40,000 nucleotides of DNA from the NCBI GenBank assembly GCA_016280725.1, contig JAEEHF010000129.1, positions 16,160 through 56,159 on the forward strand, given 5' to 3'. Shown piece after piece: positions 2 through 7,750 of this stretch. This DNA comes from Bacillota bacterium. GTDB taxonomy: Bacteria > Bacillota > Clostridia > TANB77 > UBA1234. A program made the translations under genes and the position numbers. The notes under the pieces were generated by a model. It was not told the origin of the DNA and searched no databases. It was given only the letters and a program-made list of their open reading frames with translations. The first letter of the stretch is position 1, and each line of letters opens with the position of its first letter.

Positions 2-1559
2 GATAATCCTGATAACTTAACTTCGTGTGATAAGTTTGATATTCTTCTTTATTTATACAAAAAAGAATTTGGATATGAAGGTTTAACAAAGCTTATTCAA
101 AAGTATTCGCTTGATGAACTTAAAACGGTTTATGGCGCAGATCAACCTTCATATGTAATTACTGCAGAAGAAATATCTGAAATTTTTGATAAAGAATATG
201 AAACACTTTCATTCGAGGATAGACTAAATATTCTTACACAAAGAATATATCAAAATTATAAAGGATATAGTGTAGTTGATGAAATCAGAGACATGAATAT
301 TGATGGTATTTCAGGAGGTGTTTCTGGTCTTCCAGAAAGTTTCATGTATCAGGTTGCATCACTAGGTGACTATGTTAAACAAACACAGTCAAAACAAATT
401 CCTAGAGCTTATGACTCAGTATGGATATTCTTCAAAGGTAAATCAATAGAAATGTCTTGTTTGACATTTGGTAGCTATGATGAATTAAAGAGAGTTTGTC
501 AGAATATTTATAAATACAATAATCCTGGACAATTATCAGATACTAATGGTTATAAGATAAATGAAATGAAAGATGGTTCCCGTGTCGTTGTTTTAAGACC
601 ACAAATGTCAGAGTCATGGGCATTTTTCGTAAGAAAGTTTGATACACCAAACGCAGTACTTGAAAATCTAGTTAGACAACCAGGTAAAGAGTTTGTTATT
701 CCAATGTTAAAGTTCCTTGTAAAAGGTGCTAGAGTAACTTCTCTTACTGGTGAGCAGGGTTGTGGTAAAACAACGATGCTTCTTGCCATGATTAAGTATA
801 TTTATCCTGCACTTAATATAAGAGTACAAGAAACTGCATTCGAGTTGCACTTAAGAAAAGTTTATCCAAATAGAAACATTTTAACACTTCGTGAAACAGA
901 AACAATTTCAGGACAAGAAGGCTTGGACGTACAAAAGAAAACCGATGGTGCCGTAAACATTCTACGGAGAGGTTGCTACTGACCCAGTTGCTGCATGGAT
1001 GATTCAGATGGCACAGGTTGCTTCTAAATTTACTATGTTTACTCACCACGCTAAAACTTTTGAAAACTTGATACTATCTCTTCGTAACTCACTTTTAAAA
1101 ACAGGTGTATTTACAAATGAAAAAGTTGCAGAAGTACAGGTTGTTCAGGTTATTAACTTTGATATTCACTTAAAACGTGGATTTGATGGTTCTCGTTTTA
1201 TTGAAAGAATAACAGAATGTGTTCCTGTAAAAGAAACTAATCCATATACTTTTGACCATAGAAATGAAAAAACACTAGAAGGAAAACTTGATAAGTTTAT
1301 GGACAACGCAACACATTATTTCACAAAGGTAACTGAAACTGACACTTTTAAATCTGTTAATATTATTGAATTCTATGATGGTGAATACCATATTAAACAC
1401 AGAATTTCACAGGCAAACATCGATGCTATGAGTGAGAACATGTCTCCAGATGATCAAAGAGCATTTAAAGAGTTTCTTGATGATTTCTTTGCTGGTGTTG
1501 ATGAAGATATGGAAGGTGAAAGAGCCGGATTTGGTTCAAGAAGAATCATAGTTGAGTAA
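2..1559 (+). CDS. CpaF/TadA-family type IV filament (Tad-like) secretion ATPase. The 5' end lies outside the window, and the reading frame changes by +1 at in-frame CGG 965-967.
   Basis: The frame is open from base 2. Walker A is GEQGCGKTTMLLAM. ORF 293-982 ends 5 codons after CGG. The +1 frame continues as G-EVATDPVAAWMIQMAQVASKFTMFTHHA, matching the family's GE(V/I)R...TGH...T.HA region. ORF 999-1559 is the same protein's C-terminus. Confidence 0.85.
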
Positions 1560-1595
1560 AATTAGCAGTAAAAAGGAAAGGAGGGTGGTAAAGTT

Positions 1596-6199: not shown

Positions 6200-6238
6200 A
6201 CTTTTGATTTGATTATTTTATAGAAAGGAGATTTCATA

Positions 6239-7750
6239 ATGAAGATTCAGCATTGGGCAATTATTTTTATTATCATTATTATGCCATTATCAATTCTTTG
6301 TAGATATAAGATTCAGATGCGTCTATCAGTTCTAAAAGAAGAAACAAATTACAATAATATTATTGATAATGCTACATATGATGCTGTTTCTCAAATTTTG
6401 GAAGTCTCTGAAAGCCTTGAATACGGAAAAGACGTTCCTCTTACAAAAGATATATGTGATGCATCTCTTGATAGATTTTTCACAACCATGGCGGTAAATT
6501 TTAATATAAATCCTGTTAGAAGTACAAAGTCTGGAGAAGAATTTGTTAGTAGTGCTCAAAACTACTTCAGCCAATATGTTCCAGCCATTGTATTTGTTGG
6601 GTATGACAAAATTATGGTTTATACGTTTAATGGAGTAAAGTATGAACCTGTTTATACCAATACTTATTCTACGGTGTTACCTGGTACAACTGTTGGAATA
6701 CAGTTTACACTTGACAATAAAGTTACACTTAGTTTTCCAAGCACGTATAAGTTTCAAGACATTACTGGAGATGGTTCATCGGCAAAGAGCACGCTTACAG
6801 GATATGTTGGAGAGCCTCTTGATTACAACATGAATGGAATAGATGATTGGAAAGAGGATTTGGATGAAAATGGCGTTATAGATTTGTTTGAAACGGATTT
6901 GGATGGTAACGGAGTTGTAGACATGAGAGAAGAACCATTACCTTATACTTTGGATCCGTTTGGAATTGAAATGTATACAGTTGGTGAAGAAAGAAAGAAC
7001 TACATTAATAATATGGTTACAACATTAACTGATAATTTATCTTATTTAATTTTGCAAAGATGCATCGATGGTGATGGTGATAATGTTTTTGAATCACTTA
7101 TTCCATATTTTGTTACACAAGGTGATTCAGGTGATATTATTGGAAAAACAAGTGTTGCAGAAGTTGCAAGTTTATTGGACTTAGGAAGTATAAATCAGGA
7201 TTATGAGTTTATGGATAACGGAGAAGTTAAAACAGAAGCAAGTAGATTCCATGTTTTAAGAAGAGAAACAATCATTAAGACAATTCAAGAAGGTCTAAAT
7301 AAGGCATTTAACGAATACAACTTGTATGCAGACGTGGCTGGTGTAACATATGATTTCCACCTTCCAGAAATTGGTATGGATGAATGGAACAACACAATAG
7401 ATGATATTTCGGTATTATCTTTTGTTCAAGGCATACCTTTAGGATATGATATATACTATAACAATTATTCTTTTGGTGGAGCTAGAATTGTTAAGGCACA
7501 TAATTATTATGCCGAGCAAGTTACGGATGCTGCTATAGGTGGAACTCATAATGTTTATCACCAATGGTTCTGCAAACTTATTCCGAGAAATGAAGACGGT
7601 TCAATTGCTTATGAAGGAGATGGAAAGGCCAGAGCAACTTCACAGCCAGATTATCCGACAACTAGAACATCTTCTGGAATAAGAATGGAATATATAACTT
7701 CTCAGGAGGCTAGAAAAGATGGCTATTACGCCTGCTCAAAATGCATGTAA
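6239..7750 (+). CDS. Large N-terminally anchored pilus-associated protein with acidic Ca-binding-type repeats (candidate tip/adhesin subunit).
   Basis: The N-terminal TM is HWAIIFIIIIMPLSIL. Repeats DWKEDLDENGVIDLFETDLDGNGVVDM follow a DxDxNGxxD pattern like thrombospondin-type-3, dockerin or EF-hand loops. It is the last gene of the operon. Confidence 0.4.
   Translation: MKIQHWAIIFIIIIMPLSILCRYKIQMRLSVLKEETNYNNIIDNATYDAVSQILEVSESLEYGKDVPLTKDICDASLDRFFTTMAVNFNINPVRSTKSGEEFVSSAQNYFSQYVPAIVFVGYDKIMVYTFNGVKYEPVYTNTYSTVLPGTTVGIQFTLDNKVTLSFPSTYKFQDITGDGSSAKSTLTGYVGEPLDYNMNGIDDWKEDLDENGVIDLFETDLDGNGVVDMREEPLPYTLDPFGIEMYTVGEERKNYINNMVTTLTDNLSYLILQRCIDGDGDNVFESLIPYFVTQGDSGDIIGKTSVAEVASLLDLGSINQDYEFMDNGEVKTEASRFHVLRRETIIKTIQEGLNKAFNEYNLYADVAGVTYDFHLPEIGMDEWNNTIDDISVLSFVQGIPLGYDIYYNNYSFGGARIVKAHNYYAEQVTDAAIGGTHNVYHQWFCKLIPRNEDGSIAYEGDGKARATSQPDYPTTRTSSGIRMEYITSQEARKDGYYACSKCM

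Follow-up and report, generated by a model that had tools for sequence, protein, structure and literature searches.

A Tad-like pilus cluster of the order TANB77, also present in Paenibacillus, encodes pilin-like subunits with a fixed-length and possibly retained N-terminal start

The closest described relative of the locus analysed here is the pilus gene cluster of TANB77 (Kim et al., Nat Commun 2024;15:10726; PMC11680825). TANB77 is a human-gut order without cultured members that has been associated with responses to immunotherapy in cancer, and one protein of the cluster reportedly activates dendritic cells (PMC11680825). The published cluster, found as 10-14 genes in 122 of 129 TANB77 species, corresponds to proteins 927-938 of HRGM_Genome_2725 (CAG-245), and may be regarded as the signature surface structure of TANB77. 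It is described as encoding a CpaB-like protein of 358 aa, a TadZ-like protein of 231 aa, a CpaE-like protein of 280 aa, a TadA/CpaF ATPase of 640 aa with one membrane helix, a 693-aa eight-helix protein with halves resembling TadC and TadB, six small one-helix "pilin-like" proteins, and a 621-aa protein with an N-terminal quarter resembling TadE/PilV; these predictions rest on gene context and predicted structures (PMC11680825). We analysed a stretch of 40,000 nucleotides (the window) from the genome of a Bacillota bacterium assigned to the same order. Positions 2-7750 of the window hold the distal part of a Tad-like pilus cluster, which comprises 11 genes when the contig stretch upstream is included. 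Gene for gene, the sequence comparison identifies it as the TANB77 cluster, which is thus already known. The correspondence is also visible in a human-gut locus with genes of 358, 231 and 283 aa, the ATPase and a 696-aa protein, to be compared with the published 358, 231, 280, 640 and 693 aa. The subject of the present work is the N-terminal start shared by the small subunits of this system. The published text makes no mention of a leader, peptidase, cleavage, TadV, prepilin or motif, and the N-terminal signature is absent from it. An initial annotation, made from the letters of the window, had left open whether the pilin family was already catalogued: the cluster has been in the literature since 2024, whereas the signature is not discussed there and the family is found in neither Pfam nor NCBIfam.

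The four pilin-like proteins of the window begin with MDNASKALIIAGAILIAV, MENASKAITWAGGILIAV, MDNAAKAIIIAGTILVSV and MDNLSKALTYGVSALLFV. The initial annotation had quoted these paralogous, non-canonical N-termini exactly, and it was also right that none of the four carries the bacterial Gly(-1)/Glu(+5) signature or the Flp G/XXXXEY motif of class III signals. Each of the four genes is preceded, at a distance of 6-9 nt, by a ribosome-binding site (AGGAGG or GAGGTGG), and an in-frame stop lies 1-6 codons before its ATG, so that no longer pilin leader is possible. The first seven codons differ synonymously among the paralogues of the window, including AGT versus TCT at Ser5, which shows selection on the protein and not gene conversion. 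To describe the start across the family we counted residues in 279 paralogues, which come from 80 named loci. The start is of fixed length, with M1 and N3 in 100% of the paralogues, E or D always at position 2, A4 in 96%, A7 in 97.5%, L8 in 94% and A11 in 96%; over its seven residues it is as conserved as the membrane helix that follows. Position 6 is K or R in 216 paralogues (77%), D or E in 48 (17%), and N, Q or H in 15 (5%). Paralogues without a basic residue 6 often have a lysine at position 9 (Lys9 in 42/279). Position 7 is Ala in 272 paralogues and Gly in 6, and the N-terminal helix contains no Glu. In public data the pilin profile matches 6590 clusters at the 50% identity level. The best 150 of these all begin at profile residue 1, with no longer or variable leaders among them, and 129 of their 136 new representatives start with M[ED]NASKAL while their overall identity is below 50%. 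Such a pattern lies well outside chance.

The same subunit was found in a family with genomes of 5.6-7.3 Mb, where the whole cluster is present in three of five sampled genomes (platform profile 618-702 bits) and the subunit has 332 homologues, in named Paenibacillus and Fontibacillus species. The TANB77 pilin profile aligns with the Paenibacillus subunits in register from residue 1, at 41-46 bits. Their start is MNNASSALKVAAG in 116 of 120 orthologues: with MNNASSALK there is no acidic residue 2 and no charge before A7, position 6 is S or T (116/120), and the only Lys stands at position 9. Comparison of the Paenibacillus and TANB77 sequences leaves N3, A4, S5, A7, L8 and A11 as deep invariants, all on one helix face. 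In public records (P0381-P0499) the Paenibacillus and Fontibacillus subunits are mostly annotated as "ABC transporter permease", which is almost certainly wrong. Species with such homologues on record include P. vortex V453, P. amylolyticus, P. macerans and P. pabuli, and the Paenibacillus subunit has 152-166 aa.

These features lead us to suggest that the whole M-[DE]-N-A-S-K-A start may stay on the mature subunit, making these "leaderless" pilins, a reading to which we give slightly under an even chance. Retention is favoured because the start is as conserved as the polymerisation helix, because the Paenibacillus orthologues lack the charge pattern that a removable leader would have, and because no peptidase is linked to the cluster. 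The lysine that moves between positions 6 and 9 would fit a positive-inside anchor rather than a recognition residue at -2, and the preference for Ala over Gly at position 7 (272:6) points to helix packing more than to cleavage as the constraint. Methionine aminopeptidase leaves the initiator Met in place when residue 2 is D, E or N; judging from this specificity, Met1 would be retained too. A fuller version of the proposal, which we put forward more tentatively, is that the subunits might be assembled as translated, with Met1 and the start retained, no prepilin peptidase involved, and the acidic residue 2 replacing Glu5. No evidence of leader cleavage was found in these computational comparisons.

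Only one catalytic A24 (prepilin-type) peptidase domain was found in the genome. It lies in the window, 14 kb downstream of the cluster, and comes without the bacterial Zn-finger N-domain (A24_N_bact was found on contig C74 only). By its sequence it is a possible, unproven processing enzyme of the pilins. There is no A24 gene inside the 17 clusters inspected, and none within 9 kb of the ATPase gene in 80 further loci. Within the order, A24 is present in 248 of 251 genomes and the pilins in 177 of 251, and A24 is found with or without the cluster, which indicates that it is not co-inherited with it. The carriers also encode PilB, PilT and a canonical type IV pilus, with 14-36 N_methyl proteins each, and a canonical MKNKKG|LTIIE pilin is encoded elsewhere in the genome studied here. 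With so many canonical substrates in the carriers and a near-universal A24, the presence of the peptidase decides neither cleavage nor retention, and co-occurrence with A24 failed as an arbiter of cleavage. A dedicated, TadV-like second peptidase was also considered and rejected: second A24 genes exist in few genomes (G227 and G257), and are neither linked nor consistent.

That the locus is a Tad-like pilus operon, as claimed by the initial annotation, was borne out by the ATPase profile and by a gene order kept in 17 loci. The parts that it had listed were found in the case of the four pilin-like genes and the two N-anchored proteins; the ATPase and the 786-aa platform genes, in turn, are each two open reading frames (ORFs) under the standard code. 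The ATPase gene yields a whole protein (648 aa) only when a +1 shift is made at an in-frame CGG_A, where C965 is skipped, and the platform becomes whole in the same way, with C1992 skipped. The restored ATPase core GEVATDP...FTHHA (G452-E-V-A-T) is invariant in an alignment with nine intact homologues. At its N-terminus the protein carries a membrane helix and an extension of about 270 aa, and it contains the Walker A motif GEQGCGKT and the GE...THHA core. Searched as a single sequence against solved structures, it matches Caulobacter CpaF only (5e-9), and a profile of ten homologues, searched against 177,635 PDB sequences, gave a significant match to CpaF only (1.7e-13, 52.9 bits, 277 positions), with VirB11, GspE of the archaeon Archaeoglobus (16.4 bits) and FlaI (13.4 bits) at 13-17 bits. 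The single sequence reached E 0.03 with Pfam T2SSE and 5e-6 with TIGR03819 TadA; its close homologues contain PF00437 and are named TadA or CpaF in public records. On these comparisons the ATPase is a member of the PilB/TadA family (T2SSE). An in-frame CGG_A interrupts three genes of the window, those of the ATPase (959-983), the platform (1983-2015) and the A24 peptidase (22083-22110). Gly is invariant at the CGG_A position in the intact ATPase homologues examined, the alignment check covering the ATPase junction only.

The platform profile scores 618-850 bits in relatives and in Paenibacillus. The counterpart of this protein is reported to be structurally homologous to TadC/TadB (PMC11680825), which was not reproduced here with the libraries used. 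Our own comparisons with the known platform proteins gave no assignment: it has no match in Pfam or NCBIfam; PF00482 (T2SSF) gave none at E<=10 in the genome scan; hhalign comparison with PilC-like and TadB-like alignments, assembled from 24 Clostridia genomes, was not significant (P 0.08-0.15); and a model of the platform (pLDDT 72) found no match in the PDB by Foldseek. The profile also has no match among PDB sequences.

The searches with hidden Markov models that the initial annotation had suggested were run with Pfam and NCBIfam and gave almost no matches among the cluster proteins. Pilin 1 has 429 homologues in 90% identity clusters, all of them "hypothetical" and none with a Pfam domain. 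The 47 family members examined gave no match to the Class_IIIsignal, archaeal Pilin_N, archaellin, Flp, N_methyl or TadE models (none to PF04021, PF07790 or PF01917). A link to the archaeal DUF515 was dismissed, the matches being below threshold, to the membrane helix, and in 6 of the 47 members only. Pilins 1-3 share the blocks [DG]FNxxF..ES and, at the C-terminus, G-[YV]-[LI]-x-[SK]-I-[ST], as had been noticed from the sequence, and N51 is invariant in the 47-sequence alignment. The structure prediction also proposed at that stage was made with AlphaFold2 from this alignment. The model of pilin 1 (pLDDT 93.5) consists of a helix (2-55) and a small alpha/beta head with four strands and two helices, so that the predicted subunit fold is a long, half-hydrophobic N-terminal helix followed by a globular head. 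Foldseek found no solved structure in the PDB above noise for this model; shape and context are thus the basis of the pilin assignment, homology of the head not being demonstrated. Two adjacent secreted proteins, each of about 275 aa (contig C74:101946-103094), carry the head domain as their C-terminal module, together with a Sec signal and a domain resembling the N-terminal domain of copper amine oxidases; the head is also present in a 5'-degraded pilin-like ORF (contig C139:31983-32345).

The reading with which retention has to be compared is that of a short cleavable class III leader, archaeal-like or bacterial, where the unlinked A24 peptidase would cut M-[DE]-N-A-S-K-A|L-I-I-A-G after Ala7 and give a mature start at Leu8 without Glu5; we consider this somewhat less likely. 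A number of points speak for it, and with that against retention. Position 7 is A or G in 278 of the 279 paralogues (99.6%) and is followed by a hydrophobic run, which together with the predominance of basic residues at position 6 gives the region the look of a cleavage site. Seven residues is the usual length of the leader in type IVa pilins. PibD-type enzymes accept Ala at -1, and to our knowledge every type IV filament studied so far requires cleavage by a prepilin peptidase. If the cut fell after A7, G12, taken as invariant in this argument, would come to stand at +5, where classical pilins have Glu5. Practically every carrier genome, including all 10 carriers tested first, encodes an A24 peptidase, and there is precedent for peptidases that are unlinked and shared; PMC6668835 mentions MSH loci and the sharing of peptidases. 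On the other side, residues 1-5 are conserved to the same degree as the mature helix would be, which a peptidase that also serves canonical KG|FTLIE-type substrates in this genome should not require, and known prepilin leaders differ in both length and sequence. An acidic residue 6 is found in 17% of paralogues, and the Paenibacillus start MNNASSA is uncharged, with its only Lys kept at +2. Gly, the preferred -1 residue of A24 peptidases, is found there in just 6 of 279 paralogues, peptidase genes are neither linked to the cluster nor inherited together with it, and no archaeal or bacterial prepilin model matches. The specifically archaeal version, in which the initial annotation had seen in K-A the cleavage pattern of FlaK/PibD-type enzymes and in the locus a possible Firmicutes lineage retaining archaeal-style pilins, was not borne out: residue 6 is basic in only 216/279 paralogues and is S or T in Paenibacillus (116/120), no archaeal pilin family matches, and the ATPase resembles CpaF (52.9 bits) over FlaI (13.4) and GspE (16.4). 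An archaeal-type signal is thus weakly supported by the sequences, and not in the form stated. Cleavage after Gly12 was rejected as well, this residue being Ala or Phe in 28% of paralogues and shifted in Paenibacillus.

Two other readings concern what the subunits build. There might be no long surface pilus at all, and the system might form a short pseudopilus or piston, as in type II secretion or Com-like machines, or the subunits might be N-in anchored surface proteins that display their heads. We find this improbable. Since the head domain is also found in two Sec-signal proteins and a degraded copy, the head can work outside a fibre; to this may be added that no solved pilin matches the model, which weighs against a pilus, and that no filament has been observed in any carrier, PMC11680825 resting on context and predicted structures. 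These points are countered by a complete Tad-type gene set, strictly conserved across TANB77, another Clostridia family and Paenibacillus, by a first subunit gene separately promoted and terminated, as is typical of an abundant fibre subunit, and by the extreme conservation of the N-terminal helix, expected of a polymerisation interface. As very improbable we regard the reading of the start as an ordinary Sec signal peptide that signal peptidase I takes off, releasing a soluble head. The start has a layout like an n-region and h-region, and small residues follow the helix (N-T-A-A-N-V-A in pilin 1), but conservation within the family is highest in the hydrophobic segment, whereas signal peptides drift, the model shows one continuous helix 2-55 with pLDDT above 90, and the alignment contains no conserved AxA site; on these grounds the signal peptide was rejected. 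Considering all of this, the explanation that we find best as a whole is a divergent Tad-like (type IVc-derived) cluster, hallmark of TANB77 and present also in Paenibacillus, with the start of its subunits perhaps retained; we hold it at an even chance.

The distribution of the cluster extends beyond its first description. It has been called exclusive to TANB77 (PMC11680825), which is contradicted by our sequence comparisons, in which the whole cluster is also found in another Clostridia family and in Paenibacillus/Fontibacillus. In four genomes of that Clostridia family the cluster is complete (A to K), with an ATPase about 50% identical. All 11 cluster proteins were compared by BLAST with 13 related loci, where order and strand are kept and the ATPase is 47-66% identical. 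The pilin profile matches 13 of 300 sampled genomes of the class to which the window belongs. By family within the order, which consists of 1.0-2.0 Mb gut metagenome-assembled genomes (MAGs), it matches 24/24 in the window's own family, 139/145 in f3, 4/4 in f79 and 0/8 in f78; in f2 it matches 9/69 at the threshold used. A scan for the ATPase pattern found at least 570 species genomes, and all the named ones are MAGs of uncultured gut or rumen Clostridia; named relatives include Clostridium sp. CAG:780 and Ca. Merdicola.

The genes follow the order CpaB-like, two ParA/TadZ-like, CpaF-like ATPase, platform-like, four pilin-like, the 161-aa gene and the 503-aa gene, as listed in Table 1. The terminator and major-pilin arrangement that the initial annotation had proposed for pilin 1 stood: the stem is 17 bp and perfect (4413-4450), followed by U7 (dG -21 kcal/mol, z = -6.4), and with a promoter-like site of its own in front of the gene the sequence supports a major-subunit layout. 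In the slot of pilin 4, relatives hold a paralogue of 180-265 aa starting with MENA[AV][DE]ALK. The 161-aa protein is found in every related locus with E 1e-15 to 1e-26, and in Paenibacillus with 1e-23 to 1e-32; in the domain-library scan it has a weak match to DUF4320 (E 0.12).

Table 1. Features of the pilus cluster and the A24 peptidase gene (window positions, unless a contig is named)
Feature	Position	Strand	Remark
CpaB-like protein, 475 aa, one membrane helix	contig C19:12717-14144		upstream of window
ParA/MinD-like protein, 247 aa, without normal Walker A lysine	contig C19:14165-14908		
ParA/MinD-like protein, 279 aa, without normal Walker A lysine	contig C19:14921-15760		
CpaF/TadA-like ATPase gene, 3' two thirds	2..1559	+	gene start C19:15771, 389 nt before window
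Platform-like polytopic membrane protein, 786 aa	1596..3957	+	counterpart of published protein 931 (TadC/TadB fusion)
Sigma-70-like promoter consensus TTGGCA-16-TATAAT before pilin 1	3941..3968	+	11/12 consensus match only
Pilin-like gene 1, 124 aa, candidate major subunit, start MDNASKA then hydrophobic helix	4021..4395	+	
Intrinsic terminator/attenuator after pilin 1, stem and U-run	4413..4457	+	
Pilin-like gene 2, 129 aa, start MENASKA	4586..4975	+	105 bits to family profile
Pilin-like gene 3, 157 aa, start MDNAAKA	4999..5472	+	92 bits to family profile
Short pilin-like gene 4, 66 aa, start MDNLSKA	5482..5682	+	
N-anchored protein, 161 aa, MGDSLITIIAIF...FPL family	5714..6199	+	equivalent of published protein 937
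N-anchored terminal protein, 503 aa, acidic DxDxNG loops	6239..7750	+	equivalent of published "pilin 938"
A24 (prepilin-type) peptidase domain, 240 aa	21771..22494	+	Peptidase_A24 4e-20; +1 shift at CGG_A 22092

Some further observations concern the surroundings of the cluster and the other type IV systems of these genomes. A dispersed repeat of about 36 nt stands in tandem 3' of the cluster (window 7753-7846 and 9575-9641), yields spurious ORFs reading ...QVFGDTTV.PAH..., and also flanks the pilus locus of contig C74. The latter (C74:32950-39900) is a canonical type IV pilus locus with PilC, PilB and KG|YSLVE-type pilins; its only A24-related gene encodes a 161-aa protein with the bacterial A24 N-terminal Zn-finger and without catalytic domain, adjoined by the dispersed repeat and a RAYT/IS200-like transposase gene. 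This Zn-finger protein and the separate, Zn-finger-less A24 peptidase of the window could be a split or decayed PilD. A second secretion-ATPase cluster, with no obvious adjacent pilin gene, is found at contig C108:69680-75620, and encodes a VirB4-like ATPase of 601 aa, a receiver-plus-ParA (TadZ-like) protein of 417 aa, a TadA-like ATPase of 428 aa (T2SSE, 88 bits) and a TadB-like protein of 313 aa. Five relatives in the same order, with genomes of 1.2-1.5 Mb, encode 14-36 canonical N_methyl proteins each; many of these are 300-700 aa long, and the set is unusually large for small genomes.

From the gene content and the sequence features described above we infer each functional step of the following mechanism. 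The small subunits would insert N-in, with the single flanking Lys at position 6 or 9 serving as positive-inside anchor. A membrane-tethered CpaF-like ATPase and the 786-aa TadC/TadB-like platform would then lift them out of the membrane, and the subunits may stack through the long N-terminal helix. Pilin 1 would make up the bulk of the fibre, and the other paralogues, together with the 161-aa and 503-aa proteins, could be minor, priming or tip subunits. M-[DE]-N-A-S-K-A would be a fixed-length part of the functional N-terminal helix, with the core N3-A4-S5-x-A7-L8...A11, and its acidic residue 2 may take the role that Glu5 has in classical pilins. If the start is indeed never cleaved, these subunits would be an exception to a defining rule of the type IV filament superfamily, and the first such family. 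What makes the system of interest beyond the published cluster is the fixed N-terminal signature, the presence outside TANB77 in cultured bacteria, and the possibility of peptidase-independent subunits. Since the same system occurs in cultured Paenibacillus, its processing, assembly and function are open to bench study without first culturing TANB77.

Compared with known systems, the cluster shares with the Tad/Flp loci (Caulobacter CpaA-F with PilA; Aggregatibacter Flp1/TadV) a CpaF-like ATPase, ParA/TadZ-like and CpaB-like genes, a platform of TadB/TadC size and several small subunit genes that follow those of the machinery; in some Tad loci, the peptidase is known to be unlinked. It differs from them in its subunits, which have 120-260 aa and a globular head, whereas Flp helices have 40-60 aa; in the absence of a G/XXXXEY motif, of Flp_Fap or TadE matches, and of a TadV gene in the cluster; and in a membrane-anchored ATPase with an extension of about 270 aa and a platform that is a single fused protein without a T2SSF profile match. 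With the archaeal class III signals of FlaK, PibD and EppA substrates it has in common that the start is short and polar and leads directly into a long hydrophobic helix. In the major subunits, K-A is similar to the [K/R]-[G/A/S] site found in PibD substrates, and neither has Glu at +5. Archaeal leaders vary, while here the start is invariant and of fixed length, its basic residue is not conserved, and for the ATPase bacterial CpaF is a closer relative than FlaI or archaeal GspE. The window copy comes from another family of the order than the published TANB77 cluster, has four small subunit genes, one of them of 66 aa, and includes two genes that need a +1 shift at CGG_A; the two agree in gene order, sizes and predicted roles, down to the proteins of about 170 and 500-620 aa, and they belong to the same lineage of small-genome, uncultured gut Clostridia.

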